From a virus (taxonomy: Duplodnaviria > Caudoviricetes), in IMG/VR virus record IMGVR_UViG_3300033463_000095, positions 8,017 through 72,016 of that record: a stretch of DNA of 64,000 bases, one strand, 5' to 3'. The notes under the pieces were generated by a model that was given only the letters and a program-made list of their open reading frames with translations, had not been told where the DNA came from and made no database searches. Each line of letters begins with the position of its first letter. Position 1 is the stretch's first letter. Shown piece after piece: positions 1,289 through 38,975 of the stretch. The position numbers were made by a program, and so were the translations under genes.

Positions 1289-1292
1289 TTTT

Positions 1293-1334
1293 GGGCAAAG
1301 TTAAAATATTTTATTTAATTAATATTAATATAAA
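1293..1334 (+). promoter_or_regulatory. Phage-specific promoter motif GGGCAAA-N29-TATAAA
   Basis: GGGCAAA 1293-1299, exactly 29 nt, then TATAAA 1329-1334. Same spacing at six other sites. Confidence 0.65.
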
Positions 1335-1376
1335 TATAGAAATATTTTAATGATATACAATTTATAAGGAGGAAAA

Positions 1377-1745
1377 ATGAGAGCTAGTAGAGGAGAAATA
1401 AAGATTGAAGAAGTTCTTCGAAATGCCGGAATGATTTTTGAACAAGAATATTCTTTTCCAGACTTGGTTAGCTCAAGTGGACACCCTTTAAGATTTGATT
1501 TTGCAGTATTTGACGATGAATATCATTTAATGTTTTTAATTGAATATCAAGGAATACAACATTATGAACCTAAAAGTAAATTTGGTGGTTATACTGGTTT
1601 GCGCAAGCAACAATTTCATGATATGCAAAAAAGAGAATATTGTCAAAAACATAATATTATTTTAATTGAAATACCTTATACTGTTGAGGGTAGAATTGAT
1701 TATGATTTTATTATGAATTTGTATTATTCAAAAGGCGGATACTAA
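1377..1745 (+). CDS. PD-(D/E)xK (Vsr/DUF559-like) endonuclease
   Basis: EQEYSF...LRFDFAV...LIEYQGIQHY pattern; AGGAGG RBS. Confidence 0.7.
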   Translation: MRASRGEIKIEEVLRNAGMIFEQEYSFPDLVSSSGHPLRFDFAVFDDEYHLMFLIEYQGIQHYEPKSKFGGYTGLRKQQFHDMQKREYCQKHNIILIEIPYTVEGRIDYDFIMNLYYSKGGY

Positions 1746-1779
1746 TTCATTAAAATAAAAGAAAAGCGAGGTGTCTATC

Positions 1780-3411
1780 TTGATTAATAGAAAAGAAGAA
1801 ATTAAGAAAAAAGGTTTTCATATATCTTTTAAAGATAGTACTCCAGAGGTTGAAGAATCTCAAAATAATTTTGTTCCAGTTGATTTTACAAAAATTAAAG
1901 TTGGAGCAAAAACATTAGAAGATGCTACTTTAGATTTAGGTGACTATAAAAAAATAGATAAAAGATTAGCAAGAAAAGAAGCAGTTTTAAAATCAATATA
2001 TGATAAAAACTGTACAGAAATGCGTGCTATATCTAATTTTTATTTCGAAACAAGTGGAATTTATTCAAGATTATGTAAATATATGGCTTATATGTATAGA
2101 TATGATTGAATGGTAACTCCTTATATAAATGAACAAAAAGATAAGGATAAAGAAAATACAAAAGCTAAAAAAGTTGAAGATAATGTTTTACAAGATTTTT
2201 ATAAGGTATTATTTTATTTAGATAATTCTGATTTAAAAAGATTATTTGGAAAAATTGCATTAAAAGTTGTTAGAGATGGATGCTTTTATGGTTATACTAT
2301 TCAAGGAAATAAAAGAATTGCAATTCAAGAACTTCCACTTCTTTATTGTCGTTCTAGATTTGAAGTAAACAATCGTCCAGTAGTAGAATTTAACATGAAA
2401 TATTTTGATATAATGTTTAAAGATGCTGGTCAAAAACAAAAGATATTAAAGGTTTTTGGTTCTGATTTTGAAAAAGGATATAAATTATATAAACAAGGTA
2501 AATTACCACCTTTATTTGTTGGAGATACTGAAGGATGATATGTATTAGACCCTGGTCGTGCTATAAAATTTAATGTAAATGGAGAAGATACTCCAATGTT
2601 TATGGCGGTAATACCTGCTATAATTGATTTAGATGAAGCTAAAGATTTGGACAAGAGAAAAATGGCTCAAGAGCTATTAAAAATTATTATTCAAAAGATG
2701 CCATTAGATAAAAATGGTGATTTAGTATTTGATGTTGATGAAGCTAGAGAATTACATAATAATGCAGTTAATATGTTAAGAAAAGCAATTGGTATTGATG
2801 TGTTAACTACATTTGCGGACGTCGATGTTGCCGATATGAGTGATAACCGCACAACTGCAGCTTCAGATGATCTCCAAAGAGTTGAGAGATCTGTATATAA
2901 TGAAGCAGGAGTTTCTCAAATGCAATTCAATACAGATGGTAATATTGCTCTTGAAAAATCAATTTTAAATGATGTTGCTTCATTCTATGATTTAATTTTA
3001 CAATTTCAAGCATTTATGAATGATATTATTGAAAAATATAATAAAAAACCTAAAAAATATTATTATAGAGCTCAAATCTTGACAACAACAATTTACAATT
3101 ATCAAGATATGGCTAAATTATATAAAGAACAAATGCAAGTTGGTTTCAGTAAAATGTTGCCGCAAATTGCACTTGGTCAAACTCAAAGTACAATATTAGC
3201 AAATGCTTACTTTGAAAATGAAATCTTAGATTTAGTTAATGTATTTATACCTCCTATGATGTCTAGTACAATGAATAGTGATGTATTAAATAGATTAAAT
3301 AATCAAAATAAACAAGAAAAAGAACAATCTGACAGTACAGGTGGTAGACCTGAAAAAGCAGATGATGAAAAGTCTGAAAAAACAATAATGAATGAAGAGA
3401 GTCAATCTTAA
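1780..3411 (+). CDS. Portal protein (TGA=Trp at 2107 and 2536)
   Basis: ORFs 1771-2109, 2110-2538 and 2596-3411 share a frame and are separated only by TGA (YRYD-W-MVTP, TEG-W-YVLD). Probable TTG start at 1780 after GAGGTG. Position between terminase and prohead protease. Confidence 0.85.
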
Positions 3412-3420
3412 TAAAAAATC

Positions 3421-3462
3421 GGACAAAATAAGAAAAATGATTAAACACTTTATTTATATAAT
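3421..3462 (+). promoter_or_regulatory. Phage-specific promoter motif GGACAAA-N29-TATAAT
   Basis: GGACAAA 3421-3427, 29 nt, TATAAT 3457-3462, upstream of the head genes. Confidence 0.7.
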
Positions 3463-3497
3463 AATAAGTGGAATATTAAGAAAGGATAGGTAGTTAT

Positions 3498-4868
3498 ATG
3501 ATGCATCAATCAATTGCAACTATAGACTCTCCTGAGTTTATCAATCTACAACCTTTAGAGATTAACCCACTAATGAGCAGCTGTGAAATAAAAGTTTTAT
3601 ATCTAGGTGAAAATAGAAACCATAGTTATATAACTAAAGAAGTTGCGACAGAAATGGCAAAAACTCTACGTGGAGCGCCTATTGTTGGATATTACAAAGA
3701 TGAAAAAGAAGATTTTAGAGACCATGGTGAAAAATTAATTATTGATGATGAAGGTATTAAATTTGAGTGTTTAACTAAACCTTATGGTTTCGTAGCTCCA
3801 GATGCCAAAGTATGGTTTCAAAAATTTGAAGATACCGATGAGTTTGGTAACAAGATAAATAGAGAATATCTTATGACCACTGGGTATCTATGGACAGGTC
3901 AATTTGAAGAAGCTAAATTAGCTATTGATGAAGGTCGTCCTCAATCAATGGAGTTAGATGAGCAAACTTTAGATGGACATTGGTCAACAAATAATAATAC
4001 AGGTATGGACTTTTTCATAATAAATGATGCTATCTTTTCAAAATTATGCATTCTTGGAGAAGATGTTGAACCTTGCTTCGAAGGAGCTCGCATTACCGCA
4101 CCAGAAGTAAGTAAAACATTTACAAAAATGGATGATAATTTTAAAAGAACATTATTTACTATGATGCAAGATTTACAATCTGTATTAAAAGGAGGATACA
4201 AAATGGAACTAGAAGATCAAAATGTTGAAACTGAAGTTACTACTGCTATTGAAGAAGAAGTAACTAATGTAGAAGAAGAATCTGTTGAAACTCCTGAAAA
4301 TGAAACTGAAGCTCCTGAGGAAGAAGCTAAAGAAGAACAAGAAGAAGTTGCTGCAGAAGAAACTGATATTTCCATTGAAGCTACTCAAGAAGAAAAAGCA
4401 GAAAATGAAGAAGAATTAATTGACACTGAAGACACAGAAGAAAACGCTAGTGAAGAAAATGTAGAAGAAGATTATGCTTTAATAAAGAGTGAAAATGAAG
4501 AATTAAAAACAAAATTTGCGGAAATGGAAGCAAAATATCAAGAGTTAGTAGCATTTAAAGAAGCTGTAGATAATAAAGAAAAAGACGCTTTAATCGATAG
4601 TTTCTATATGTTATCTGACGAAGATAAAAAGGACGTTATTGAAAATAAATCAAACTATTCTCTAGATGAGATTGAAGCAAAATTATCAGTAATTTGTGTT
4701 AGAAAAAAGGTTAATTTTGATTTAGATAATTCATCAAAAAGTGAAGATAAAGTAGAAACAGAAGATAAAGAAGAAGTTGCTACAACTTATACTTTAGAAG
4801 AAACTGATTCTACTATTGTTCCTGAGTTTATACAAGCTTTAAGAAATAATAGAGATAGTAAAGAATAA
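3498..4868 (+). CDS. Prohead protease/scaffold protein
   Basis: N-terminal domain (GAPIVGYY, GYLWTGQ, SMEL, LCILGEDVEPCFEGA) plus a long acidic coiled-coil C-terminus. Lies between portal and capsid. Confidence 0.75.
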   Translation: MMHQSIATIDSPEFINLQPLEINPLMSSCEIKVLYLGENRNHSYITKEVATEMAKTLRGAPIVGYYKDEKEDFRDHGEKLIIDDEGIKFECLTKPYGFVAPDAKVWFQKFEDTDEFGNKINREYLMTTGYLWTGQFEEAKLAIDEGRPQSMELDEQTLDGHWSTNNNTGMDFFIINDAIFSKLCILGEDVEPCFEGARITAPEVSKTFTKMDDNFKRTLFTMMQDLQSVLKGGYKMELEDQNVETEVTTAIEEEVTNVEEESVETPENETEAPEEEAKEEQEEVAAEETDISIEATQEEKAENEEELIDTEDTEENASEENVEEDYALIKSENEELKTKFAEMEAKYQELVAFKEAVDNKEKDALIDSFYMLSDEDKKDVIENKSNYSLDEIEAKLSVICVRKKVNFDLDNSSKSEDKVETEDKEEVATTYTLEETDSTIVPEFIQALRNNRDSKE

Positions 4869-4892
4869 TTTTAATAAGGAGGATATAAAACC

Positions 4893-5423
4893 ATGAAAAT
4901 TACAAGAAAAGGTTTTGGTCAAGTTGAACCTAATCATTTATCTGCACAAAGAAATGGACAAATTTATGCTCAATTACCATTAGATAGTGAATACACAGGT
5001 GTTCTTGAAAATGGTCAATTCATGAAATATGATTATGAAAATGGTAAGGTTGGTTTAACTGGAGACATTGATGAATATTTCTTAGTTTATAACGAAGTTA
5101 AAGTTTATGATGAAAGAGATTCTTATAAAGATTTCGCTATGAAAAAAGAAAATTATGTTGGTGGAGAAATTTATCCAAGATTATTCAAAACTAATATTGG
5201 AGATATCTACACAACAAACTGTGTTGGTTTAGCTAACACTGATAAAAATGCTAGTGTTACTTATAATACTGAATTATCTCTTGGAGATAAATTAGAAGTA
5301 GATACTAGTACAGGATATTTAGTAAAAAATAATGGAAGTACTGCAAATATGATTTGGCAAGTTGTAAAAACTTATACTATGCCAGATGGACAAGATGCTG
5401 TAAAAATTCAAAGAATAAAATAG
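4893..5423 (+). CDS. Capsid decoration/minor head protein (putative)
   Basis: 176 aa, strong RBS, directly before the major capsid gene. Confidence 0.55.
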   Translation: MKITRKGFGQVEPNHLSAQRNGQIYAQLPLDSEYTGVLENGQFMKYDYENGKVGLTGDIDEYFLVYNEVKVYDERDSYKDFAMKKENYVGGEIYPRLFKTNIGDIYTTNCVGLANTDKNASVTYNTELSLGDKLEVDTSTGYLVKNNGSTANMIWQVVKTYTMPDGQDAVKIQRIK

Positions 5424-5443
5424 TTTAAGGAGGATTTATAATT

Positions 5444-6490
5444 ATGGAATTTAAAGATTTATCTAAATTAGCAAAACTTGCTAGTACTGTAAAACCTTCT
5501 TCTACTTATTCTTTCGGTGAAGAAACTTACACTGCTAAAGAAATTAATGAAACATTAAGAAAAGAATTAAACAGTATTGCTGGAGCTAATTATCATTTAT
5601 ATGAACAAAACAAACATACAATCTTCGCTTTAATCGAAGAAACAATCGACGATGTTCTTCCTCAAAGAGTTTTAGAAGAATATGGTCAATTTGCTGAAAT
5701 TAAACAAGTTGCTCAAGGTGACAAAGCTATTTTCAGACAAAAAGTAACTGCTGCTTCAAGAAGAAGAGCAAAACAATTCATTACAAAAGTTGGTTTAGCA
5801 GGCGTTTATGAAGTATTTAAATTAGATGGTAAAAGTTATGAATTACCAGTAACTGCATTCGGTGGCGCTGCTCAAATCTCTATCGAAGAATTCTTAGATG
5901 GTAGATTAGATTGGAATGAATTAGTAGAAATCGTTATGGAAGGTTTAGATGAAGCTATTTATTTAGAAATAGAAAAAGCTTTAATCGGAGCTGTTGATGA
6001 ATTAGGAGAATATAATAAATATGCAGGTATCGGATTTAATGAACAAGCTATGGATAGCTTAATTGCTGTAGCTGATAGTTATGGAAGATCTACTATTTAT
6101 TGTACATTCGAATTCGCAGCTACTATGATTCCTAGTGATAGTAGAATGTCTGATGCTATGAAAGATAGAATTTGGAACAATGGTCTTTTAGGAACTTATA
6201 AAGGACATAATGTTATCGTATTAAATCAATCATTAGTAGATGAAACTAATTCTAGAAAAGTTATTGATCCAGCTTATGCATGGATTATCCCAGCTGGAGC
6301 AAATGAAAAACCAGTTAAAATTGCTTTCGAAGGTCAAACATTAGTTGATGATAGAAAGAATGATGATTGGTCTAAAGAAATTCAAGTTTACAAAAAACTT
6401 GGAGTTGGTGCTTTAATTACTAATAATATCTGTGTTTATAGAAATGCAGCATTAACAAAAGATGTAGTAATCCCAGCTAGTTCAATTTAA
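5444..6490 (+). CDS. Major capsid protein
   Basis: 348 aa with strongly biased codons and a strong RBS. Followed by a terminator. Typical position in the head module. Confidence 0.85.
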   Translation: MEFKDLSKLAKLASTVKPSSTYSFGEETYTAKEINETLRKELNSIAGANYHLYEQNKHTIFALIEETIDDVLPQRVLEEYGQFAEIKQVAQGDKAIFRQKVTAASRRRAKQFITKVGLAGVYEVFKLDGKSYELPVTAFGGAAQISIEEFLDGRLDWNELVEIVMEGLDEAIYLEIEKALIGAVDELGEYNKYAGIGFNEQAMDSLIAVADSYGRSTIYCTFEFAATMIPSDSRMSDAMKDRIWNNGLLGTYKGHNVIVLNQSLVDETNSRKVIDPAYAWIIPAGANEKPVKIAFEGQTLVDDRKNDDWSKEIQVYKKLGVGALITNNICVYRNAALTKDVVIPASSI

Positions 6491-6506
6491 TTTTAAAAAT
6501 ATAACT

Positions 6507-6560
6507 TGGGAAGGTTAAAAATTTCTTATAATAGAGATATTTTTACCTTCCCATTTTTTT
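6507..6560 (+). terminator. Intrinsic terminator after the major capsid gene
   Basis: TGGGAAGGT...ACCTTCCCA long hairpin followed by a T run. Confidence 0.75.
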
Positions 6561-6586
6561 ATTAGGAGAGAAAAGGAGTTTTATAT

Positions 6587-7177
6587 ATGAGAGAAATAGA
6601 CAATAAAGAAATTATTAAAGTTACTAACAGATTTAATGGTTCTGTTGGTTATACAATTAGAGATTTAAATAATCTATCTAGAGTGTTTAGTCCAAATGAA
6701 ACAAAAGAAATTACAATGGAAGAGTTAAGAAAATTATCTTGGGAAACAGGCGGCCGCACTTTAATTAACGATTATTTAATTATTCAAGATGAAGACGCTT
6801 TAAAAGAAATTTTAGGTAGTCCTGAACCTGAATATTATTATACAGAAGAAGATGTAAAAGATTTATTATTAAATAAATCATTAGATGCTTTAAAAGATTG
6901 TTTAGATTTTGCCCCAAGAGGAACAATTGATTTAGTTAAAAAATTAGCAGTTGAATTACCTTTAAATGATGTGGCTAAAAGACAAGCTATTTTAGAAATG
7001 ACTGGATTTAATGTTACTTCTGCAATTGAAATCAATGAAGCAACAAAAGAAGAGCAACCTGTAAATAATACAGGATTTAGAAGAATAGATAGTAAGCCTG
7101 AAAAAGAACCAGAAAAACCTACTGGAAGAAGAGTAGCTGTTGTTAACGATAATAAATATAAAGTTGTTAATAAATAA
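6587..7177 (+). CDS. Hypothetical virion-associated protein
   Basis: Intact 196-aa ORF with RBS in the head-neck region. Confidence 0.7.
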   Translation: MREIDNKEIIKVTNRFNGSVGYTIRDLNNLSRVFSPNETKEITMEELRKLSWETGGRTLINDYLIIQDEDALKEILGSPEPEYYYTEEDVKDLLLNKSLDALKDCLDFAPRGTIDLVKKLAVELPLNDVAKRQAILEMTGFNVTSAIEINEATKEEQPVNNTGFRRIDSKPEKEPEKPTGRRVAVVNDNKYKVVNK

Positions 7178-7195
7178 AAAATAGGAGGTGTGAAT

Positions 7196-7732
7196 ATGGA
7201 AAATACAACACCTTTTTCTGTTGTTTATGATAGTTTTTTATCTAAAATCACTGAAGATATGTATATGGAATTAAATGAAAAAGATACATTTAACTTATTA
7301 GAAGAATTACTTATGTCTGCTATACATAAATTTGAATTTCCTAGAATTAATATTTTTGATTATGTAGCTAAAAAAGATTTAGATAAAAAAGCTGCTAAAA
7401 AACTTGATATAGGATATTTTAATTGTGAATTAAATGATGAAGAAGTTAATATTTTAGCTACTTATATGGTAGTAGAATGATTAGGACAACAACTTGCAAC
7501 AGTTGAAAATACTAGAATGAAATATAGCGGAAGTGATTTTAAATTTACTTCACAAGCAAATCATATGAGTAAAATACTATCATTAAAGAAAGATTATGAA
7601 AGAGAAGGTTTTCATCTTCAAAGATTATATAAAAGAAGATTAAAAGATGAAGATGGAATTATGCGCTCAACTTTTGGAAGTATAATGGAAGAATCTCCTG
7701 AGGGAAGAGAGGTTCAAACAATATGGAAATAA
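7196..7732 (+). CDS. Head-tail connector (putative), TGA=Trp at 7478
   Basis: ORFs 7190-7480 and 7517-7732 are in frame through YMVVE-W-LGQQ. ATG at 7196 after GGAGG. Confidence 0.65.
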
Positions 7733-8058
7733 GTACTGGAGCAAATATAAAAAATGAAGCTATTATTGAAAATCTTAAAAAATTAACTAATCAAATATTT
7801 AAATTATTACCTGATTGAGAAGAGGCTCTAGATTGACAAACCCCATTAGGAACTATTATAGAAGAATTATCTGGAATGGATGAATTGTTAACAAATTATC
7901 ATGAAAAATTATTTTCTTTATTATGCAAACTAAAAGGTCTTTATGATTATAAAGAAAATAATGAAAGAGATGATTTTTCTGATTATCGAAGAACTATATT
8001 TGAATGTCTAAATATTTTATCTAGTATCAAAAATGAGGTTGAACAATGTCAGGATTAG
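7723..8058 (+). CDS. Hypothetical neck protein (two TGA=Trp)
   Basis: MEISTG...KLLPD-W-EEALD-W-QTPL continues in frame into ORF 7876-8058. Ends TAG. Confidence 0.7.
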
Positions 8059-9014
8059 ATAATTTAGGGCTTAGATTACAATATACTGGCGGCAACCGTC
8101 AAATAGATAGAATGAATGAAGATAAATTAAAAAGTTTGAAAAAAGCTCTTCTATATTCTTATCAAAGTGCAACTGCAATTTTAGCAGATGGTAGAGAATT
8201 TAGATGTTTAATTAATCCAGATAAGTTGAAAAATGTTTATGATGATAAAATTATTTCAATTCCTTTTAAAGATATCTGTTTAAATAAAGATAGAATTGGT
8301 AAAACAACAAATGGAATTGAAGATATAGGTATGAAGCCAGGTGATATATTTACATGGAAAGAAAATGAAACAGATTGATTAGTTTTTTTACAAAGATTTG
8401 AAGAAACTGCATATTTTAGGGCGGAAATCCGTAGATGTAAATATACAGTTACAATAGATGACACTGAATACAAGTGTTATGCGGCAAGACCTTCACTTAA
8501 TGAAATTGATTGAAGAGAACAAAAAGAGAAAGCTTGAAATGATATAGATTATACATTACAAATGTATATAACAAAAGATGAAAAAACTGAAGCATTTTTT
8601 CATAGGTTCGCAATTATAAAAGTAAATGGTCAACCTTGAGAGGTACAAAGTGTAGATAGTATGAGTTCAGATGGTATCATTCTTGTATATTTAAAAGAAT
8701 GATATAATAATAGTATCCAAGAGGCTAAAGATGCAGAAGATGCGAAAATCGCACCTGAGGATGATATAGACGCAAATGATCCTGTAATAATCGGCCCTGC
8801 CGCAGTTTATCCATATGATAAAAAATCTTATACTATTGAAAATGCTGAAGGTGGACAATGGGTTATAGGTAGTCAAAAAGCAAAAATAATAGACCAAGAT
8901 GAAACAATGGTTAAGATTGAAATAGTTTCAGGTCGTAGTGGTAATTTTGAGTTAAAATATGTAAGAGATGGTGAAGACGATATCATTTTGCCTATTGAAA
9001 TAAAATCATTATAG
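8046..9014 (+). CDS. Head closure/adaptor protein (putative, several TGA=Trp)
   Basis: Frame continues past TGA 8376 (TD-W-LVFL) and further TGAs (GQP-W-EVQ, LKE-W-YNN) to TAG at 9012-9014. C-terminal Ig-like segment. Confidence 0.65.
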
Positions 9015-9033
9015 GAGTTAAAGGAGAGTAAAT

Positions 9034-9621
9034 ATGAGAAGAGATGTTATTAGCACAGTTCCATTAAAATCATCTTTCTTATCTTTTGAAAAAGATGTAG
9101 AAACTATATTAAAAGCATTGTTTGTTCAAAGCCAACCTCACAGTGATGGATTAAAAAGATTGCTAGTATTAAATACAAGAGACTGTTTAGATAGTACAAC
9201 AAGTCAAGTATATAAAAACATCCTTGATAATATAACATTAGCAACATTAATTCAAGATGGATATATTAGATTAAATCCTAAAATGAGAATGCCTGAGCAT
9301 GAAGAGGTCAAGTCTTATATAATTATTTCTATGGATAATTTTGTTCCTACTACAAATCCTCAATATAGAGATTGTACTTTAACTTTTGATATTATTTGTC
9401 ATATTGATTATTGAGATATTGGAAATTATAGACAAAGACCAATTAAAATTGCAGGATATTTAGATGGCTTATTAAATAATGCTAAATTAAGTGGAATTGG
9501 TGAATTACAATTTTTAGGAATGAATGAGCTTATTCTTAATGAAGATTTAGCTGGTTATACTCTTATGTATAGAGCTACCCATGGAAATGATGATCGTTTA
9601 CCTCCATCAGATTTAAATTAG
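9034..9621 (+). CDS. Tail terminator/completion protein (putative)
   Basis: Reads through TGA 9412 (CHIDY-W-DIGNYRQRP) to TAG 9619-9621. Position before the tail tube gene. Confidence 0.6.
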
Positions 9622-10353
9622 ATGGATAATGAGTTGTTATATCTATCAGGTAATGATATTCCTTTTACAGAAGCTCAAGTTACTATACATCAACCTACAA
9701 TAAAAGAGATCGCATATATTGGGGAGGAAGCATTCTTTATTGGATGTGAATTAATTAATTTTTCTAAAAATAATTTAACAGAAGAGGACAAATTAAATTT
9801 AGAAGATAAGACAGATTTTGATATATTAATAGCAATACTAAGAGAGCGTAATGCGGTAATGCAAAGAAATAGGAATTGCGTAGAAATGGTTCTAGCATTG
9901 GTTTTTCCTGAATATTCTTTTGATTTTACAAACAAAGAAATTTTATTAAAGAAAAATGATGAAGCTTATTCTATAAATAATAAGAATTTTGAACAATTCA
10001 AAAGTATATTTAATAAAATGTTTGATTATAAAAAGAGTATAGAAGATAGTTATAATCCTGCGGGAGATATGGCGAAAAGAATTGCTAATAAATTGAAAGA
10101 ACGTCATCAAAGATTAGCACAAGAAAAACATGAACAAAAGAAAATTGATGTTTTTGGTAGATACATTTCTATTTTAACTGTAGGAGAGCGTAAAGATATG
10201 AATTCTTTAATGCAATATACAGTATATCAATTAAATGATGAGTTTACTCGTTATGAATTGAAAAATAGTTATGATATTCATTTAAAAGCTCAATTAGCTG
10301 GAGCCAAGGATTTAAAGGAAGCTGAAGACTGAATGAAAGATATTCATTCATAG
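9622..10353 (+). CDS. Hypothetical tail-region protein
   Basis: ORF 9622-10332 extends through TGA (AED-W-MKDIHS) to TAG 10351-10353. Confidence 0.7.
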
Positions 10354-10385
10354 TTTATTAAAATTTTTTAAGGAGGATTATAGAT

Positions 10386-11312
10386 ATGAAGTTCGGAGTT
10401 CGTGAGATTACAGACGTAGTTTTTAAAGCTAAAGCTGATACTAAAATCGGATCAACTACATTTAAAGCTGGACAACCAGTATTATATATCGATACAGCTA
10501 AAACTTCTACAGTTGAAGGTGCTGCTACTACTGTATATGCTACAGGTGGTAAAGGTAATACAAGATTAATCGCTTGGGAAGGTGAAAGAACTTTAACATT
10601 TACAGTTGAAGATGCTTTATTATCTCCAATTGGTTTCTCTATTTTATCTGGAGCTGGATTATTTAAAGCTAATGATAAAAATGTTCATGTTCACATGACT
10701 GCTAATGCATATGTAAGTACTAATGGTACTATTGATCTAACTGATTCTTTAGCAGCTAGTGAAAATATTGATGGTACTGCACCAGTATTTGTTATGACAA
10801 CTGAAGCAGATGGTTCATTAAAAGGTGAATTATTAACTGGTTTAACAGTTAATGGAAAAACTATTACAGGAGCTACTAGTGCAGCAGGTAAAACTGTATT
10901 TGTAGATTTCTATGTTGTTAAGAGTGCTGCTAATGTATCTGAATTAACAATTGATGCAGGACATTTTGCAGGAAATTATTATGTTGAAGCTAGTACATTA
11001 GTTAGAAGAGAAGCTGATGGTGTTGATATGCCAACTGAAATTACATTACCAAATGTTAAAATCCAATCTAACTTTACATTCAATATGGCTGCAACAGGAG
11101 ATCCAAGTACATTCTCATTCACAATGGATGCATTCCCTGGATTCACTACTTTCGATAGAACACGTAAAGTATTAATGGTTATGCAAATTGTTGAAGATGC
11201 TACTGCAGGTGCTGAAACTGTAAATTCAGTAATGGGACATCCAGCAGGATTTGAAATTGAAATAACTGAAAACGATTCAACAAATGAATCTGGAGAACCA
11301 GCAAGTATTTAA
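10386..11312 (+). CDS. Major tail tube protein
   Basis: 308 aa, Thr/Ala/Gly-rich beta protein with biased codons and a strong RBS. Followed by a terminator. Confidence 0.75.
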   Translation: MKFGVREITDVVFKAKADTKIGSTTFKAGQPVLYIDTAKTSTVEGAATTVYATGGKGNTRLIAWEGERTLTFTVEDALLSPIGFSILSGAGLFKANDKNVHVHMTANAYVSTNGTIDLTDSLAASENIDGTAPVFVMTTEADGSLKGELLTGLTVNGKTITGATSAAGKTVFVDFYVVKSAANVSELTIDAGHFAGNYYVEASTLVRREADGVDMPTEITLPNVKIQSNFTFNMAATGDPSTFSFTMDAFPGFTTFDRTRKVLMVMQIVEDATAGAETVNSVMGHPAGFEIEITENDSTNESGEPASI

Positions 11313-11319
11313 TATTAAT

Positions 11320-11351
11320 AAAAGAGAGGGCGGCAACGGCCTCTCTTTTTT
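11320..11351 (+). terminator. Intrinsic terminator after the tail tube gene
   Basis: AAGAGAGG...CCTCTCTT stem followed by a T run; the loop contains GCGGCAA. Confidence 0.8.
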
Positions 11352-11372
11352 GTTTATTAGGAGTTGATAATT

Positions 11373-12821
11373 ATGGGTAGTGCAATTGGAAATTATGTGC
11401 ATTTACTTGGAAAAAATTATGAAAAATCTGGAACTTCTATGTATGGTACTGAAGGTGGAATGAGCCTTTCAACAGCGATTGCCGCACAACATGAATTAAT
11501 ACAAAATAAAATTCAAGAATATGAACAAATCAACAATCTTTCTTTATATAGACTACAAAATAAGATAAATAAATTGATTAAATTAATGGGTTCTAATGAA
11601 TCTAGTAATAATAAAGGTTTAAGTGGAGAGCAAGTTAGACAATTTTTAGAGCAAGTTATGAATGAAGAATTTGATAATTTACAAACATTAGATTTTAAAA
11701 CTGGTTCTGTTAAAGAAACTGGTGGTAAAGGAAGTAAAGATAGAGGAATATTTAAAGATCCTAGCAAATATAAAAATTGAAGAAAAGCACTTGTAGCAAG
11801 AGTTAATCAATTAAATAAAATATTACATGATTTAGAACAGCAGGCTAATGAAAATAACGATGGGGTTAAAATGGAAGAATATGGTGTAGCTATTGATAAA
11901 TTATCAACACTTTTAAATGATACTTATCAAAAAACTTGAGAAAGCATATCTCAAACAGGTTTTAGAGTTAGCCAAAAGAAAACTCAAAATCTAATAAAAG
12001 AATTAAATGAATTAATTAAAACCTATGCAGCAATGCCTGCTATTAGTTTGCAAAATGGAACTTTTTTTGAAAATATACTTCAATTAATTCCTCAAATGGC
12101 AAATGATGAGGTTGATAAAGCTATATTTGAAGCTGCAGGAAAAGGACAGGATCAATTAAAAGTAAGTTATAATCAATCTGCTTTTGCTTCACAATTAAAT
12201 GGTCAAAAAAAATTTGATGAAATGATTCAAACAGTTAAAACTTCTCAAGGTAAAATAGATGTAAGTTTTAAATGAGAAGAAAAAGATTTAAATATTTCTG
12301 CAAAAAATTTAGATATTAGTACAAAAGGATATAAGTATATATCTACAGTTACTGATAGTCCTTTAATTTATTTATTGCAAGATGCTAATCCAAGTTTTGT
12401 TAATCATTATTTAAATATATATAGTAATCATATCGATAAAAAAAGTATGAATTCTAATTTAGCAAGTCAAAAAAGTGCTATACAAGATGTCATGAGATTA
12501 ACTCTTGCTTATAAAGGATTAACTGGAGATACTTATGGAAGACATGATTTTAAAACTAATGTATTTATAGTTAATGATTATACGGGTAAAAAAAGTAATA
12601 ATATAAGAGTTATTTCTATTTATACCTTATTAAATAGAATGAATAAAACTAATTCTAGTGATTTGTTTGTAACTAATAATGTTTGAAATATGTATGCTAA
12701 TAAAAAAGTTACTGGTTATCCAAGCACAGCAAAATGAGAAAGAATTGGAAAGATTATCCAAGAAATGCATGATAGAAAAATAAGAACATCTTTCCATAGT
12801 AAATTACTTGACATTCAATAA
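11373..12821 (+). CDS. Hypothetical protein (~482 aa, five TGA=Trp)
   Basis: ORFs 11364-11780, 12033-12275 and 12375-12686 are one frame joined by TGA. Ends TAA 12819-12821. Confidence 0.7.
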
Positions 12822-12836
12822 AAATTTTGATATAAT
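12808..12836 (+). promoter_or_regulatory. Perfect sigma70/sigmaA consensus promoter
   Basis: TTGACA 12808-12813, 17 nt, TATAAT 12831-12836. Confidence 0.85.
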
Positions 12837-12869
12837 ATTATAAAGAAAGAGAAAAAAGGAGATGTAACA

Positions 12870-13403
12870 ATGGAAAAGGTTACTTACGCAAGTTTAAAAT
12901 TAAAAAATAAAATTGAAACTGAAAAATTTGATTTTAATGGTCATCAAATTGAAGTACTACAATATTTGCCTATTGAAGATAAATATAGTTTAATAAATAT
13001 TACTTTACAAAAAGCAAAAGAAGGTAGTATTTACAATCCAGTTAAAATTGACCATTTTTTTCATTTAAATTTAATTTATATGTATAGTAATATTACTTTT
13101 ACAGATAAGCAAAGAGAAGATGAAGCTAAATTATATGATATATTGGTTACTAATGGATTAAGAGATGCTATTATTAGTAAAATACCTGAAAGTGAATATG
13201 AAACATTATTTAGTTTTATGAACGATTTAATGGCAGATACTTTAAATTATAAAAATGGTATTAGTGGAGTTATTTCTGAGTTAGTTAATTCGTTACCAGA
13301 AAGAGCTGAAGAAATGCAAAAAATAGTTGATAATTTTGATAAGAACAAATTTCAAGAAGTAATTAATTTTGCTAAGGCGGCAAATGGTGGAAGAGATATT
13401 TAA
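12870..13403 (+). CDS. Hypothetical protein (tail-chaperone position, own sigmaA promoter)
   Basis: Intact 177-aa ORF with an AAGGAG RBS, directly before the tape measure gene. Confidence 0.7.
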   Translation: MEKVTYASLKLKNKIETEKFDFNGHQIEVLQYLPIEDKYSLINITLQKAKEGSIYNPVKIDHFFHLNLIYMYSNITFTDKQREDEAKLYDILVTNGLRDAIISKIPESEYETLFSFMNDLMADTLNYKNGISGVISELVNSLPERAEEMQKIVDNFDKNKFQEVINFAKAANGGRDI

Positions 13404-13411
13404 TTTAGCAA

Positions 13412-13453
13412 GGTCAAATTAAATTAATTTAAATCCCTTTTTATTGATATATC
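13412..13453 (+). promoter_or_regulatory. Phage-specific promoter motif GGTCAAA-N29-TATATC (weaker -10)
   Basis: GGTCAAA 13412-13418, 29 nt, TATATC. Upstream of the tape measure gene; overlaps a hairpin. Confidence 0.5.
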
Positions 13454-13470
13454 AATAATAAAAGGGATTT
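13431..13470. terminator. Long AT-rich hairpin/possible bidirectional terminator
   Basis: AAATCCCTTTTTATTGATA...ATCAATAATAAAAGGGATTT inverted repeat. Confidence 0.55.
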
Positions 13471-13512
13471 TTTATTTTGTAATAAAAATAAAAAAGGAGG
13501 AAAAGGATTATT

Positions 13513-16500
13513 ATGGCTGATAGACAAATTAAATATGAAATTGATGTCGAGTTAAAAAGAGACTCTTTCGAAAAAATTAAAAAAAGTTTATTAGATTTAA
13601 ATAAAACTTTAACAGGAAATATAAATAAAGCAAGTCCTATTCGAGATATGTATAATTTATTAGACAAGTCTTGAAATAAAAAATTGGATCAATTAGATTT
13701 AAGTAAAATTTACGGAGAAATAAATAAAAGTGGACAATCTTTATTAGATTTTAAAAAATCTTTAGAATCTATGGGACCTGCAGGGGCTCAAGCTTATAAT
13801 GATTTTAGTCGAGCTGTTTTAAATACAAATTTACATCTTTCTGAAGGTAGTAAATTATTAGATAATATGGCAGATACTATGGCTAAGACTGTTAAGTGGG
13901 GTATTGCTTCTCGTATAATGAATAACATGGTTGGTTCAATAGAGAAAGCATGAAGTTTTAGTGTTAAATTAGATTCGTCATTAAATGATATTAGAATAGT
14001 TACTGGTAAAAGCGCAGATGAAATGGAGCGTTTTGCGGTAACAGCTAATAAAGCTGCAAAAGCATTAGGTGCTAGTACAAGAGATTATACAGAAGCATCT
14101 TTAATTTATTATCAACAAGGTTTAACAGATCAAGAGGCTCAAAGAAGGGCGGAAATCACTCTTAAAGCAGCTAATGTTACAGGTCAATCTGCACAAGAGG
14201 TATCTGAACAATTAACTGCAGTATGGAATGGTTATAATGTCGCTCTTGGAGAAACAGAAGAATATGTAGATAAATTAGCGGCAGTTGCTGCAAGTACAGC
14301 TGCTGATCTAGAAGAGTTATCTACTGGTATGAGCAAAGTAGCATCTGCTGCCGCAACTATGGGTGTAGACATTGACCAATTAAATGCTCAATTAGCTACT
14401 ATTGTTTCTGTTACTAGACAAGCTCCTGAATCTGTTGGTACTGCTTTAAGAACAATTTATGCTCGTATGGGTGATATTAAAGCAGGACTTGATGAAGAAA
14501 CCACTCTTGGTAATTATACATCTAAGATGGCTCAATTAGGAGTTAATGTTTTAGATGCGAATGGTAATTTAAGAGAAATGGGAGATGTTGTTGAAGAAAT
14601 TGGTAATAAATGAAATGATTTAACTAATGAACAACAAGTCGCTCTTGCTCAAACAATGGCTGGTACTAGACAATATAATAATTTGTTAGCATTATTTAAT
14701 AATTGAGATATGTACACAAAAGCTTTAAATACTTCTGCAAATGCTGCAGGTACTTTACAAAAACAACAAGATATTTATATGGAAAGTACTGAAGCTCATT
14801 TACAACAAATGAGAACCGAAGCAGAAAAAACATATGATATATTATTTGATACAAAAACAGTAAATAGTTTTATTGATGCTTTTACAGGACTTAATAGCGT
14901 ATTTAATACGTTTTTAAAAGGTCTTGGCGGAGGAATGAATGATTTTGTTTATTTTGGTTCACTTTTAACCAATATCTTTAATAAACAAATTGCAGGTGGA
15001 ATTGAAAATTCAATTCAAAAATTAAGAAACTTTAATGATAATAAAAAAACTATAGAGTTATTTGAGAACATAGTTAAAGAAGGTAAGGCTGGATATACAG
15101 ATGAGAATGGCCAAATGATATATGATATTACTGAGGCTGAAGCTGCAGATTTTGAACGTGCCAGTCAACTATTAAAATTACAAAGAAGTATAAAAAACGA
15201 AGATTTTAATAGACTAAATACTTTAAGACAACAAATTTTTGCGTATGATGAAATTCTTGAAAAAAGAGCTCTTGAAGATGGTATTGGTAGTGACATTACT
15301 AAAAAATTAGCTGATGAACTTGCTTCTTTAACGAACAAAAGAGAATTAATAACAGACGTTACTCAAAAAGAATTGTTAAATACAGAAGCTGCAAAAGAAC
15401 GAATTGCTATTTTGTTAGAAAGTAAAGCCAGTGAATTACAAAAAGTACAATTAAAAACTTTAAATGAAAAACTTGATAAGGGAGAAATTTTAACTGAAGA
15501 AGAAATACAAAAATTATTAAAAATTCAAGAAGAAATAAAAATTAAATTATTACATTTAGAAGAACAAAAATCAAAAGCATTAGAAATATCTAAGGAACAT
15601 GAAGAAGATGAAACCGCTGCAATTCAATATCGAAGAGATGCGCTTCAAAAGGAATATGAAGATGAAACAAAAATTAAATTTGAGGCTCAAGAAATAGGAG
15701 ATATTGTTAAAGGAATTTCTATAGCAACTCAATTGTGAGTTTCAGGAACTGGGATAGTAAAAACACTTTTTGATGATACTTTAACAGCAGGAGAAAAGCT
15801 TTCTCAAATATTTAGTGTACTTTCTTCAAGTTTAATAACAATAGCATTACATGCAAAAGATTTTAAAGAGATTGGAGCTTCTTTTGTAAAAGTATTTGCT
15901 AAAATAGGAATAGAAGGAATGGTTGCGGTTGCAGCTATTACTGCAATGGTAGGAATTTTTGTTTTAGTTACTGATGCTATAAAAGAAAGTCAAAGAGAAA
16001 TTGAAAAACTTGAACAAGCCACAAAATCTTTTGCTGACCAAGCAGAAAAGTTAAAAAATGAAGCTAAAGAAATAAAAGACACTTTTGATAAATATACTTC
16101 TATAGAAAAAACTTTAGAATCTTGTGCTGAGGGCTCTGAAGCTTGAAATAAAGCTATTGAAGAGCTTAATAAAAATATTTTAGAATTAACTCAAAAATAT
16201 CCTGATTTATTAAAAGTGCAAAATTTGTTTACTAGAGATAGTTCTACAAATGCTTTATTGGTAAATAAAGATACTCTAAATAATTATCTTGCTGAGTTGA
16301 ATAATCAGGAAAGAATTTCTCAAATTGCAAGTTTATCTAGTGGAGCAAAAGCAAAACAACTAAAAACTGAAAGTTCTAGAGAAAATTTATTAGATAGAAT
16401 AATAAATAGTATAGCTTCAACAGAAATAAGTTCGAATATACTTTTTGGAGGGAAAAAATTTACTCAAGAAGAATTTAATGACACTAGAGAAAATTTAAAT

Positions 16501-19500
16501 AAAAATTTATCTAGTTTATCTAATTTAACTCAAGAAGAATATAAGCAACAATTAGAAAAAATAGGTATTGATAAAAAATATATAGATAATTTAATAAAAT
16601 ATCAATCTCAAATAGATTTATTAATACAAAGTACAAATGATGTTTCGAACTCTTTAAAAAATACAGCTACTTTAATAGCTGAAACAGATCTTGGAGCTTG
16701 AACATCAGAAACAGAAAAACAAATTTATTCAAGTAAATATTTACAAAATTATAATGAAATAAGAGAAAACACTATAAAAGAAATAAATTCATTAAATAGA
16801 GTTTTTACTGATACAAATAAGGTTGCGGATTTAATAAAAAGATATAATGCAGCTATGGGAACAAATTATGAAATGGCTCAAGGTGGAAATTTTGTAAAAT
16901 ATGGGGGAGCTAATAGACAAATTTTAGTTCAAAATGGTGAACAGACTCAATATTTTACAAGAGAAGAACTTGCTTCTGGAATTGCTGCGGGCGAAGCTAG
17001 AAGTGGTATTGGTAAATTAAAAATAGATGAAATAGCACAAGAATTTAATCAAAAAATATCTAATAATATAGAAGGAATTTCAGAATTATTAGCAGATCAA
17101 ATTCTTTCAAGAACTTTTACATCAAAATCTTTAAATGAAAGTACTTATAATTTAATAAAAGATAATATAGATAATATTGATAATCTTTTTTCAGATTCAG
17201 ATTGAGAACAAATGGGATATTTAGGTCAAGAATGGGCAAATAATATTCGAGAACAATTTAAAAATAATTGAAATCAAGAAGAATATCAAAATTTCATTAA
17301 AGAACAATTTGAAAGTTCTTTATCTGCTGCAAGCGCATTAGCAAAAGAAAAATATAATTTTGATGAAAAAGATTTTGAAAACTATGGTCGATATATTGCA
17401 GAAATAGCAGATGAGTCTGAAGAATTGGCAGATGCCTTAGAAAAAGATGGTCAAGCTACAGGAATTGTCGTTCAAAGTATAATGAGAATGAATAAAGGTA
17501 TCGAAGATCTTGCTAAAGGAATTGAAAATTGGTTAGATATTTTAAAAAATAGTACCAAAGAATCTTATGAATATTGAGAAGCTTTAGATGGAATAAGAAA
17601 AAGTTTAGCAAATATATTAGATATTGAAGAAGATTTAATTGATTATAAATTTATTGTTGGCGATGAAAATACTGAAGGACATCTTGATGATATTACATTA
17701 GCTGCAGAGGGTAATGCAGAAGCAATAGAAAGATTAAGAGATGCTTATGCAGATCAAGTAATATTAGATATTGCAGCAAATATGGATTTTACAGATGAAA
17801 GTATTAAAACAACAAAAGAAAAAATGGTTGAAGCAATAAATGATATTCAAGCACAAATTCCTAATATAGATATTGGACCAGTAAATGATGAAGACTTCAT
17901 TAATTCTTTGCAAGCAATTATCGACAATGCTAATATGACAGTTGAAGATGCTAACACAATGTTTTCTGCGTTAGGTTTTCAAGCTGAATATCAAGAGGAT
18001 AACCAACAAACCACTTCTACAGTTCCTGTTTATACAACATATGAAAAAATCAATGAAACCCCAAAAGATGATAAGGGAGAAGAAATTCCTGGATATAGAG
18101 CTAAAAAAAGTACTTTTACAGTTCAAACAGATACTGTCACTTTACCTGGATCTATAGCTAGTTATTCAATGGGAGTTACTACTAATGATGGTAAAAATGT
18201 TAGAAAGCCTCAAATTAAAAAATTAATTAAAAAAGGTACTGGAGCTTCTAATAATTATTCTTCTAGAAATGCTGGAGGCGGTAGCCCAGGAAAATCAAGT
18301 GGTGGTAGCGGTGGAGGCGGAGGTTCTTCTAAACAGCCTAACACAATTGATCCAATTGAAAAAGAAAAAGATAGATATCATGATGTAAATATTCAATTAA
18401 AACAAATAAGTAATGAATTAAATAAATTAGATAAACAAAAAGATAAATTGTTTGGTGATGATTTAATTGAGAATTTAAATAAACAGCTAGAATATTTAAA
18501 TCAACAAATAGATACCACTAATGAAAAAATGAAAATTGCGGAAGGTGAAGCTCAAGAATTACAAGGTAAGCTTGCTGCAAGTGGTGTTACATTTAATCCA
18601 GATGGAACTATAAGTAATTATGCCCAAGCATATCAAGCTCAATTAAATTATGTAAATGGAATTATTAATCAATATAATTCAATGGGAGCTGAAGCTCAAG
18701 AAGGCTTTAAAGATACTGTTGAAAATGCAAAAGAAAATTTTGAAAAATTTATTGATAATATTAATAGATATGATGAAGTTATTACTGATTTAATACCAGG
18801 TCTTGCCGCAGATATCCAAGATGCTGTTGATAAACAAATTGATATTCAAATTGAAGAATTTGATATGGAAATTGAAATTCGTTTAGACATGGCTGAGGCG
18901 GAAAGAGATTGAAATGAATTTAAAAAGAAAATAATTGATGGTATAAAAGATGATGATATATTAGGCAATGCAATGGCTAAATTAGTAGATTTCTCTTCTT
19001 ATTATAAAGAAGATGATACTGGTGCAGCTCAAGCATTAAGAAAACAAATTGATAATACATTAAAAGAATTATCTCAAATGGATGAAACTGGAACATCTAG
19101 AGTTTATGGTGATAATAGAACTGCTGCTCTTGAAGATTTAAAGAAATATTATGATGAATTAAGAAAACAAATGCAAGATATTTTAAAACTTCAAGAAGAA
19201 ATTCATAAATCTTATATTGACATGATGAATGAAGCGCAAGAAAAATTTGATGAACAAGTTAAATCATATGAAATGATTAGTAAATTAGTTGAACATGATA
19301 AAAAAGTTATTTCAATGGTTTATGGCGAAGATGCTTATCGCCAATTAAGTGCTTTTTATGATAAGCAAGAATTAAATTATAAAGCTCAATTAGATTTCCA
19401 AAAACAACAAGTTGAATTCTGAAAAGAACAAATGGAAGCTGCGGAAGCCGGTTCTGAAGCGTGGGACGAAGCCAAGGAGAAATGGGCGGCCGCAACAGAA

Positions 19501-21378
19501 GAATTAAACAGTTTAATTGAAACTTCTATTGAAAATCTAGAAGATAAATATTTAAATGCAATAAATGCTATATTCCAAGATTTAAATAATAAAGTTACTA
19601 GTGGAGCTGGACTTGATTATGTAGAAGAAGAGTGAAATTTAATAAATAAAAATGCAGAACAATACTTAGATAATATTAATAGATTATATGGTATTCAAGC
19701 ATTAGAAAATAAATATTTAGATGCAATTAATGATAATGATAATATTGCCGCACAAAGACAACTTAAGAGAATAATGGATGAAGAACTTAAAGCCCTTCGT
19801 GAAAGAGATAAATTAACAGAATATGATATTGAAAGAGCAAATAAGAAATATGAAATTGCATTAAAACAAATTGCCTTAGAAGAAGCTCAACAAAATAAAA
19901 CACAATTAAGATTAAGAAGAGATACTCAAGGTAATTATAGATATGAATTTATAAGTGACATTGATCAAGTTAATCAATTACAAAACGATTTAGATGATTT
20001 GTATAATTCATTATATAATTTTGATAAAGAAAATTATGCAGATAATTTAAATCAATTATATGATGTATGAAAAGAATTCCAAGATAAAATGGCGGAAGCC
20101 GCACAAATTAATGATCCTCAAGCAAGAGCTGAAAGAGAGTTATTAATACAACAACAATATAGTGATTTAATAAATGGATTAGTTGAACAAAATGAAACTA
20201 TTCGTAGTAATTTATATGATTCTGCTTTTGAAGATTTAGCTAGATTATATGATAAAGATAAAAACAACTTCCTACAAATGACTCAAGCTGAACAAGATGC
20301 AATAATGAATGATTTAATTCCTTATTGAGACGCGGGAGTTCAACATATGGCTGATGTATTTGCAGGCGAAGGTGGATTTATTCCAACTTGTGAAGATGCT
20401 ATTGATGAACTTCATGAGGCTACTAAAGAGTATGAAGATGGATTAAAAGAAGTTGAAAATACTGCTGATATTAGTTTTGATAATATTGGTAATGGTATTG
20501 ATGATGTAATTGATAAAACTCAAGAACTATTAAAAGATAATAATGATTTAATTGATAGTTATAAAGAAGAAATGGATGCTATTGGTGGAGTTGTTAATGA
20601 ATTAGATAATTTAGTTAATAAGTACCAAGAAAGCGCGGACGCCGCTAAGGCAGCGGAGAAGGCAGCTTATGATTATTGAAGTGAACAACAACGTCAAGCA
20701 GCAGAGGCCGCCGCAAGAGATCAAGCTGAAAAAGAACGTAAAGCCGCAGAAGAAGCAGCTAAGAAAGCAGCAGAACAACCTGCTCCAGCACCGGTTGCCG
20801 CAGCTCCAAGTTATAGTAGTGGCGGAGATGGTCAATTAAATATTGGTGATACTGTTACATTTAGTGGAACTTATTATGCTACTTCGTATGGTGAAGGTTC
20901 AAGTGGTTCATTATATTCAGGTGTAGCTCAAGGAGTTATAGTTGATAGAATTAATGGAAATCCATTTGGTGTACATATTCACAGTGCTGATGGTAGATAT
21001 CCTGCATTAGGTTGGGTTAGACGTTCTCAACTATCTGGATATGATACTGGAGGTTATACTGGTGAATGAGGTAATTCTGGTCGTCTAGCTTTATTACATC
21101 AAAAAGAATTAGTATTAAATCAACAAGATACTAGAAATTTATTAAATGCAGTTAATATAATGAGAACAATTACTAATACTATTGGTAGCAAAGTATTAGA
21201 TAGATTAGCTACTATAAGTGCAAATAATGGATTTAATGGTGGAGTTGGTGGAGTATTAGATCAAAATGTTAATATTCAAGCAACATTCCCTAATGTAAGA
21301 GACCATAATGAAATAGAAGAAGCCTTAAATAATTTAGTTAATCGTGCTTCACAATTTGTACAAAACAAAGAGAGATAA
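13513..21378 (+). CDS. Tail tape measure protein (2621 aa, at least 17 in-frame TGA=Trp)
   Basis: Thirteen track ORFs from 13684 to 21378 share one frame separated by TGA. N-terminal TP901-like tape-measure region (LDSSLNDIRIVTG...EQLTAVWNGY...LRTIYARM), long coiled coils, C-terminal GYDTGGYTGE-W...LLHQKELVLN. Confidence 0.9.
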
Positions 21379-32318: not shown

Positions 32319-32681
32319 ATGTTTATAATAGATGGAGATACTTTTCATGTTACATGAGGAGATAAAGGTTCATTTGATTTAACATTTGAAGATTATACTT
32401 TTCAACCTGATGATGAGGTTTATTTAAGAGTATATGAAGAAGATGCTATGGATGAAGAACCTGTCTTAGATAAAAAATTAGTGGTAGATGCGGCAACTGA
32501 TACTGTTACTATGAATTTATTAAAAGCAGATACTAAACTAGGCGAACCAAGCAATGAAAGACAAACTTATTGATATGAAATTACATTAGGTCACGATGGT
32601 TCAATTCCAGATCAAACACCATTTTGTTTTAATGATAAGGGACCTAAGTTATTCTACATATATCCAGGAGGTGTTGAATAA
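32319..32681 (+). CDS. BppU-like Ig-fold baseplate adaptor (putative)
   Basis: 120 aa, two TGA=Trp (HVT-W-GDKG, QTY-W-YEI), strong RBS. Missing from the track. Confidence 0.6.
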
Positions 32682-38901: not shown

Positions 38902-38960
38902 CGGGAAGGCGGTCTGTCCGAACATGGGTAGATACCCTAGGACAGAGCGTGGCTTCCGCA
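38901..38960 (+). other. GC-rich nested stem-loop between endolysin and holin
   Basis: GCGGGAAG pairs with CTTCCGC, TCTGTCC with GGACAGA, GGGT with ACCC. Confidence 0.5.
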
Positions 38961-38975
38961 TTGGGAGGTTTTGTT

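Follow-up and report, generated by a model that had tools for sequence, protein, structure and literature searches.

This study concerns the use of TGA as a tryptophan (Trp) codon in a tailed gut phage, of which a stretch of 64,000 nucleotides (the window; bases 8017-72016 of one 72,016-bp virus contig, IMG/VR record IMGVR_UViG_3300033463_000095) was analysed. Five genes of its head and tail module, whose products are presumed to be made in the largest amounts (hereafter bulk genes), contain no TGA and ten TGG codons, whereas the other late genes of the module contain 77 TGA and 28 TGG (Fisher p = 6e-6). The reading that we favour, with a probability of roughly 0.7, is ordinary translational selection against one costly codon, which would be removed where translation is heaviest, and not a device for setting the ratios of virion parts.

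Codon usage of the bulk genes

The bulk genes and their Trp codons are as follows.

3498..4868, + strand, prohead protease with a coiled-coil (scaffold-like) C-terminal half, 0 TGA and 3 TGG
4893..5423, + strand, small head protein, possibly cement or decoration, 0 TGA and 1 TGG
5444..6490, + strand, major capsid protein, YonB family of SPbeta-like phages, 0 TGA and 4 TGG
6587..7177, + strand, head-module protein without functional label, 0 TGA and 1 TGG
10386..11312, + strand, major tail (tube) protein, 0 TGA and 1 TGG

These identities are annotation-level assignments. Residues 21-240 of the protease-scaffold protein match annotated prohead protease genes of Bacillus Tsamsa-like phages and also phrog_3313; some database records name its orthologue 'myosin II heavy chain', a label that would point to the coiled-coil, scaffold-like part. 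Among the members of the Atlas cluster closest to the small head protein, 19% have Phage_cement and 12% have XM1_gp53 minor capsid, which is a lead only. The capsid protein is assigned by Atlas clusters carrying PF27364 YonB (score 0.99) and by a homologue in Bacillus phage Kirov that is annotated as major capsid protein. The tube protein matches phrog_2729 (virion structural protein), and its homologues in Bacillus phages are annotated as major tail protein or tail tube protein. The only match of 6587-7177 was phrog_30998 (function unknown). A Pfam search gave no family for any of the head and tube genes, and profile searches against PDB sequences returned nothing meaningful. Since the tape measure protein has 2621 amino acids (aa), the tail must be very long, and the tube protein is therefore expected in hundreds of copies, as in siphophage tails in general.

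Genes of the same genome that serve for comparison are listed below.

1771..3411, + strand, portal protein (matches phrog_2739), low-copy contrast, 2 TGA and 0 TGG
7190..10353, + strand, five neck or connector genes, low-copy contrasts, together 10 TGA and 3 TGG
11364..12821, + strand, gene between tube and tape measure, 5 TGA and 0 TGG
13513..21378, + strand, tape measure protein (PF10145 match), 17 TGA and 7 TGG
38949-39218, holin (PF16938), 0 TGA and 2 TGG

No family was assigned to 11364-12821 in the Pfam and PHROGs searches. Further downstream, the gene of a 2790-aa fibre has 27 TGA and that of a 799-aa tail protein has 12. An initial annotation of this DNA had reported TGG at all ten Trp positions of the bulk genes and at both positions of the holin, together with TGA in the portal, neck and tape measure genes, and the recount reproduced these statements exactly. 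Its ThyX gene with TGA at six of six Trp positions was not recovered under that label, and the ThyX motif occurs in no protein of the contig. Two genes do have 6 TGA and 0 TGG, one at 49787-50458 of the window and the other at 6336-7550 of the contig, which is outside the window; neither of the two matched ThyX in Pfam or PHROGs.

Over the whole contig, 156 TGA and 120 TGG were counted, so that TGA makes up 56.5% of the Trp codons. The spread of TGA among genes exceeds binomial sampling (chi-square-like statistic 111.5, 56 degrees of freedom, permutation p < 5e-5), while the GC content at third codon positions (GC3) stays at about 0.10-0.14 throughout, near 0.11, in a contig of 28.6% GC. Composition was rejected as the cause by the remaining pairs of A- and G-ending codons (NNR pairs). 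In the bulk genes, all other NNR pairs are 92-100% A-ending (CAA 39 : CAG 0, TTA 89 : TTG 0, AGA 41 : AGG 0), which is more extreme than the share of about 90% among the two-fold pairs of the other late genes. Composition would therefore predict more TGA in the bulk genes, not fewer, and Trp is the sole amino acid for which the A/G-ending preference is reversed there. A per-gene TGA fraction that agrees with binomial sampling once GC3 is controlled for, which had been named as a counter-observation, was therefore not obtained. The other late genes do use TGA, as had been stated, but 'freely' was too strong a word: TGA accounts for 73% of their Trp codons, below the approximately 90% A-ending share of the other two-fold pairs.

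Avoidance of TGA goes along with general codon bias. The capsid, cement-like and tube genes have an effective number of codons (Nc) of 28.8-29.8, which places them among the most biased genes of the genome, and they have the fewest G-ending NNR codons (capsid, Nc 29.3 and 1% G-ending among other NNR codons; cement-like, 28.8 and 2%). Those late genes of this genome that have a larger G-ending fraction in the other NNR pairs also tend to have a larger TGA share (rho 0.58, p = 0.002). The comparison with a codon-bias index that had been proposed thus agrees here; in two relatives the same correlation was positive (rho 0.29 and 0.31) but not significant.

Conservation among relatives and in other recoded lineages

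For comparison, 15 IMG/VR loci with the same head module (capsid protein identity 61-83%) were used. In-frame TGA occurs in 14 of these, while the remaining locus, L015 (IMGVR_UViG_3300035520_001188), has 0 TGA among 43 Trp codons. Codon alignments revealed 36 conserved Trp columns at which TGA and TGG swap, and the same columns have TGG in L015. This fixes the meaning of the codon: as judged from the alignments, TGA is Trp in this phage group. Where it is not opposite Trp (TGG), TGA aligns mostly with Tyr or Phe and not with Gly, for which reason code 25 (TGA as Gly) was rejected.

Taking the window together with the 14 recoded relatives, the five bulk genes have 14 Trp columns with 3 TGA and 155 TGG codons and 2 parsimony changes, counted on a concatenated tree. 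Eleven other families of the module have 36 Trp columns with 218 TGA, 215 TGG and 76 changes. This corresponds to about 0.14 changes per Trp column in the bulk genes versus 2.1 in the other families. Relatives that carry TGA at the capsid and tube Trp sites had been named as a possible counter-observation; with 3 of 158 Trp codons, such sites are rare. Gene by gene, the relatives have 1 TGA and 62 TGG in the protease-scaffold gene (5 Trp columns), 0 and 15 in the cement-like gene, 2 and 64 in the capsid gene and 0 and 10 in the tube gene. The single Trp of 6587-7177 is replaced by Tyr in most relatives, and this gene therefore carries almost no weight for the pattern. All three exceptions, including both TGA of the capsid gene, lie within the sister loci L007 and L012, whose lineage has the largest TGA share overall. 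Across the relatives, the TGA share of the whole module ranges from about 19% to 68%, with the bulk genes near zero throughout. The low-copy genes vary even among close relatives (portal 0-2 TGA, TerL 0-4, the gene at 8046 1-5); both Trp columns of the portal flip between TGA and TGG (6 inferred changes), and conserved Trp columns of the neck genes alternate as well.

The same pattern was found outside this group. The TAG-recoded gut phage phAss-1 belongs to the same phage family (capsid protein 47% identical) and reads TAG as Gln. Its orthologues of the bulk genes have 0 TAG among 63 Gln codons (0 among 11 in the tube gene) versus 32 among 173 in 11 other late genes (p = 2.5e-5), and in 10 further Phassvirus contigs the bulk genes have 0-1 TAG versus 9-12 in other late genes. 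The ratio of CAG to CAA in phAss-1 is 15:0 in the capsid gene, 4:0 in the cement-like gene and 10:1 in the tube gene, and such extreme use of a preferred codon is a classic mark of heavy translation. Two loci of a deeper TGA lineage, L077 and L078, have 1 TGA and 9 TGG and 0 TGA and 10 TGG in their bulk genes versus 19 and 14 and 21 and 16 in others. They branch outside the clade formed by the group of the window and the standard-code L015. In the capsid tree, L015 is placed between two TGA-recoded lineages, so that the TGA code would either have been lost once or gained twice in the family, whose more distant members are Enterococcus EF1-like, Bacillus Tsamsa-like, Lactococcus 949-like and Clostridioides phiCD211-like phages. 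The purge of TGA from abundant virion proteins proposed in the initial annotation is therewith corroborated: it persists across relatives, recurs in other lineages and tracks codon bias. As far as alignments can tell, purifying selection would maintain the avoidance of the recoded codon across relatives, and the avoidance is repeated in a second TGA lineage and in TAG lineages.

Decoding of TGA

A Trp-like tRNA(UCA) is encoded in all three large relatives, at the following positions (relatives only).

L048, 8093-8188, Trp-like suppressor tRNA(UCA)
L049, 4487-4789, Trp-like suppressor tRNA(UCA)
L047, 10450-11146, minus strand, Trp-like suppressor tRNA(UCA)

No tRNA genes were found in the 72-kb contig, which ends at DnaE, before the tRNA array; in the relatives this array lies about 25 kb beyond DnaE. 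Replication genes are nearly free of TGA. The two DnaE pieces of the contig have 1 TGA and 9 TGG and 1 TGA and 5 TGG (together 2 and 14), the N-terminal part of NrdD has 0 and 3, and DnaE has 0 and 18 in each of two relatives, which also contain long runs of TGA-free replication genes. Given these genes and the tRNA(UCA) of the relatives, TGA is probably a stop codon in the host. A native code-4 host (Mycoplasmatota) was rejected because of the TGA share of 56.5% compared with about 90% A-ending codons elsewhere, the TGA-free early genes and the relatives' own tRNA(UCA). In each of three genomes, T follows TGA less often than it follows TGG; pooled, it is the next base after 17% of TGA and 25.5% of TGG codons (p = 5e-4, with sites that are not independent). 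In Escherichia coli, U after UGA is the strongest context for termination by release factor 2 (RF2). The T deficit would fit competition with RF2, although as evidence it is weak.

The suppressor tRNAs of the three relatives are unusual in having five arms, that is, the UCA anticodon arm and an extra arm in the variable region. The loop of the extra arm, CUCCAA(A/C), is a copy of the loop that carries the anticodon in the neighbouring tRNA-Trp(CCA), and both arms keep their pairing by compensatory changes. That the extra arm acts as a decoy anticodon for tryptophanyl-tRNA synthetase is speculation. Two of the three genes are interrupted between U34 and C35, one by 207 nt and the other by approximately 604 nt; the 5' exon ends with U and the insert with G. 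The group I intron model gave 15.7 bits (E = 0.15) for the insert of one relative and no match for that of the other, where only a weak HDV-like (hepatitis delta virus) match was obtained, next to the gene. The two split copies were detected by ARAGORN only with introns allowed, and intron-split genes could explain undetected suppressors in many recoded phages. One may also imagine that read-through is deliberately limited by this five-armed, partly split tRNA, with its supply as a per-codon throttle, the number of TGA as a dial for timing and dose of late proteins, and the bulk genes exempted; we regard this as unlikely.

The tRNA arrays of the relatives also contain tmRNA genes, a skipping-rope RNA and a region that matches OLE RNA in part but strongly (109 bits); these OLE, skipping-rope and tmRNA loci are at the following positions.

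L049, 8989-9188
L047, 2301-2415
L047, 12189-12545
L048, 2821-3229
L049, 2126-2566

Transcription of the late module

A promoter-like motif, KGNCWAA-N29-TATAW, matches the window seven times versus 1.3 expected, and two copies concern the bulk genes.

3421..3461, + strand, KGNCWAA-N29-TATAW, 77 nt upstream of the protease-scaffold gene, position shared with 6 relatives
9786..9826, + strand, KGNCWAA-N29-TATAW, inside the gene 9622-10353, about 600 nt before the tube gene

After the copy at 3421, the next intergenic copy is found at 13412, so that the bulk genes and the TGA-bearing genes would share one putative transcription unit. TGA-bearing neck genes lie among the bulk genes, with gaps of 1-52 nt or with overlaps. 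A scan of 1200-13700 for sigma-70 promoters and terminators performed no better than on shuffled sequence and gave no intergenic terminator. The copy at 9786 is an exact match at the same offset in all 10 distinct TGA-recoded relatives that cover the site (L002-L014) and is absent from the standard-code L015; possibly, it is an internal promoter that raises expression of the tube gene. Proximity to a promoter was rejected as the cause of the missing TGA, as the genes following the motifs at 13412 and 21405 (tape measure and 2790-aa fibre) hold 17 and 27 TGA.

A sigma-factor-like gene (phrog_5767, E = 2e-43) is located at 5242-6336 of the contig, two genes upstream of TerL and just upstream of the window. 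It contains 6 TGA and 2 TGG. If its product drives the late motif, late transcription itself would need suppression of TGA.

Proposed translational selection and alternative explanations

Under the favoured reading, a phage-encoded Trp-like tRNA(UCA) would decode TGA in a host that reads this codon as stop. Each TGA would entail a small cost by some termination through RF2, slower decoding and wasted or harmful truncated products. Mutation pressure towards A+T would steadily convert TGG to TGA, and selection against TGA would scale with the amount of translation of a gene. TGA would hence be nearly eliminated from the capsid, protease-scaffold, cement-like and tube genes, whose products each virion needs by the hundreds, and selection would merely keep it near 50% in low-copy genes. 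Proteins with 17-27 TGA are evidently made, and read-through per codon must therefore be high. A loss of a few per cent per codon would matter for the capsid protein (4-6 Trp, hundreds of copies) and hardly for a portal protein with two. A rough mutation-selection estimate puts the scaled selection against TGA at about 2 in low-copy and about 7 in bulk genes; the neutral expectation was derived from the other NNR pairs, and should A-ending codons themselves be favoured, the values are upper bounds.

Several points weigh against this reading. The protease-scaffold gene is not strongly codon-biased (Nc 34.3). The copy numbers rest on the functions of annotated or clustered homologues with 24-41% identity, and AlphaFold2 models of the capsid and tube proteins, based on 10-11 close relatives, reached predicted local distance difference test (pLDDT) values of 47 and 40, too poor to use. 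Since Trp is rare, the tube and cement-like genes supply one Trp column each. The relatives share ancestry, so their counts are not independent, and parsimony corrects for this only in part. The suppressor tRNA of this phage itself is deduced from relatives, as the contig stops before the tRNA array. Two TGA-poor late genes are not obviously high-copy, namely 32681-35299 (0 TGA and 6 TGG) and the endolysin (2 and 7). Finally, recoded stops do occur in the capsid genes of crAss-like phages (PMC7886860, PMC9523058), so the avoidance rule is specific to certain families and not universal.

The initial annotation had gone further and suggested that TGA dosage tunes virion stoichiometry, the number of TGA per gene being an evolved dial that throttles low-copy proteins. 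The richness in TGA of genes such as those of the tape measure (17), the 2790-aa fibre (27) and the 799-aa tail protein (12) would suit this idea, as would the few gene families of Agate phages that prefer TGA (Borges et al., 10.1101/2021.08.26.457843). A dial should be kept at its setting, but the per-gene counts of portal, TerL and the gene at 8046 are not conserved among close relatives and the share of the whole module varies over the range given above. Moreover, TGA is disfavoured in low-copy genes too (73% here and 50% across relatives, against about 90% A-ending in other NNR pairs), and given high read-through per codon, one or two TGA would barely alter the yield of portal or TerL. The suggestion was therefore not upheld and appears quite unlikely; the free drift of TGA in low-copy genes agrees with mutation pressure that weak selection opposes, and not with a set point. 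Unlikely as well is an explanation by timing, by which the head and tube genes would be translated before the suppressor tRNA is active and hence be kept in the standard code. This is the published explanation for standard-code regions in recoded phages (10.1101/2021.08.26.457843), and the nearly TGA-free replication and early genes agree with it. Yet the bulk genes alternate with TGA-bearing neck genes between the same two motifs (3421 and 13412), no intergenic terminator was found in the 1200-13700 scan, and portal and TerL are needed at the same stage and carry TGA.

Recent import of the head and tube genes from a standard-code relative, with TGA not yet accumulated, is very improbable. A standard-code relative, L015, does exist in the family, and TGA-poor fibre-like and lysis genes such as 32681-35299 diverge strongly from their homologues in relatives (35-41% identity), which would fit exchange. 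The bulk genes, in contrast, resemble those of the relatives to a similar extent as their neighbours (55-83% versus 42-85% identity), their codon usage is that of the genome and only more extreme, and avoidance was present in every lineage examined while neighbouring Trp sites switched 76 times. Another conceivable cause is assembly poisoning, in which truncated capsid or tube subunits arising from termination at TGA spoil the lattice. The protected set (capsid, scaffold, cement-like and tube proteins) indeed consists of lattice-forming proteins, and sequence data cannot separate poisoning from a cost in yield. The link with general codon bias points to expression level instead, and the position of TGA along genes shows no consistent bias in three genomes (means 0.54 vs 0.51, 0.49 vs 0.59 and 0.50 vs 0.52), so that we rate poisoning as rather improbable. 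High expression or the exchange of modules may account for the late genes that are poor in TGA (32681-35299, the endolysin and comparable genes for fibres or lysis in relatives).

Further features of the genome

An open reading frame (ORF) map with TGA as sense codon yielded a syntenic siphophage gene order.

Start of the map: leftward block of small genes, followed by the sigma-factor-like gene
Next, in order: TerL, HNH gene, portal, head genes, neck genes, tube gene
After the tube gene: tape measure (2621 aa), fibre or adhesin (2790 aa), tail proteins
After the tail proteins: endolysin and holin
Opposite strand: nucleotide-metabolism genes, with NrdD and DnaE both split

The contigs of relatives that share the head module measure 125-144 kb, and the contig is therefore about half of a genome of approximately 130 kb, of an SPbeta/Phassvirus-like siphophage that reads TGA as Trp in late genes. 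The gene 32681-35299 encodes an 872-aa late protein without family match, adjoins TGA-rich tail genes and has homologues of 35-41% identity; it is a possible receptor-binding module that was recently exchanged. NrdD (55911-59161 of the window) and DnaE (59266-63795), both on the minus strand, are each split into two ORFs, between which lie the ORFs 57448-57948 (NrdD region) and 61960-62739 (DnaE region). The latter is a homing endonuclease (phrog_314) with 2 TGA and 0 TGG (5 and 0 in a relative), in agreement with the TGA-rich intron endonuclease of Agate phages (Borges et al.).

Significance and comparison with known systems

In published work on recoded phages, the emphasis is on the places at which recoded stops build up, as a timer of lysis or late genes, and the result presented here is the reverse side: within one putative late transcription unit, the recoded codon is excluded from the genes presumed to be most translated, in TGA and TAG lineages alike. 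Such avoidance implies a cost of read-through, and much of the remaining pattern may reflect mutation pressure against weak selection and not design. For annotation it is helpful that capsid and tube genes stay intact under standard-code gene calling, which can also hide recoding. The contrast between bulk and low-copy genes offers a gauge, requiring only sequence, of the cost of a reassigned codon in a given lineage.

The phage is similar to the Agate-type TGA-recoded gut phages of about 127 kb (10.1101/2021.08.26.457843) in size, low GC content, TGA as Trp in structural and lysis genes, replication genes in standard code, a suppressor tRNA (here in relatives), a TGA-rich homing endonuclease inside an early gene (here 61960-62739) and close relatives with standard, TGA or TAG codes. 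This likeness rests on size, code pattern and endonuclease, compared by description. Borges et al. (10.1101/2021.08.26.457843) looked solely for families that prefer TGA and interpreted recoding as a lysis timer; a depletion within the late module (capsid, scaffold, tube) is not described, and the word 'capsid' is absent from the preprint. The Phassvirus group (phAss-1, OQ749652; PMC10607447) shares the syntenic head and tail module and the same five genes without the recoded codon, and differs in that phAss-1 reassigns TAG to Gln with a tRNA-Sup(CUA). The phAss-1 paper (PMC10607447) lists ORFs broken by TAG and does not remark on the sparing of the bulk genes.

The principle has already been published for variant-code eukaryotes and for the codon bias of phage structural genes; the result is solid and not surprising. 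Lucks et al. 2008 (PMC2266997) found phage head and tail genes to be more biased to preferred codons than non-structural genes; their phages differ in using the standard code, with ordinary synonymous codons and no stop reassignment. In Blastocrithidia (PMC12153298) and a ciliate (PMC10553269), reassigned stops are non-random and fewer in highly expressed genes, which was read as translational burden. Both are cellular organisms whose code is fixed, whose release factors are altered and whose expression was measured, whereas here a virus probably imposes its code on a standard-code host for part of the cycle.

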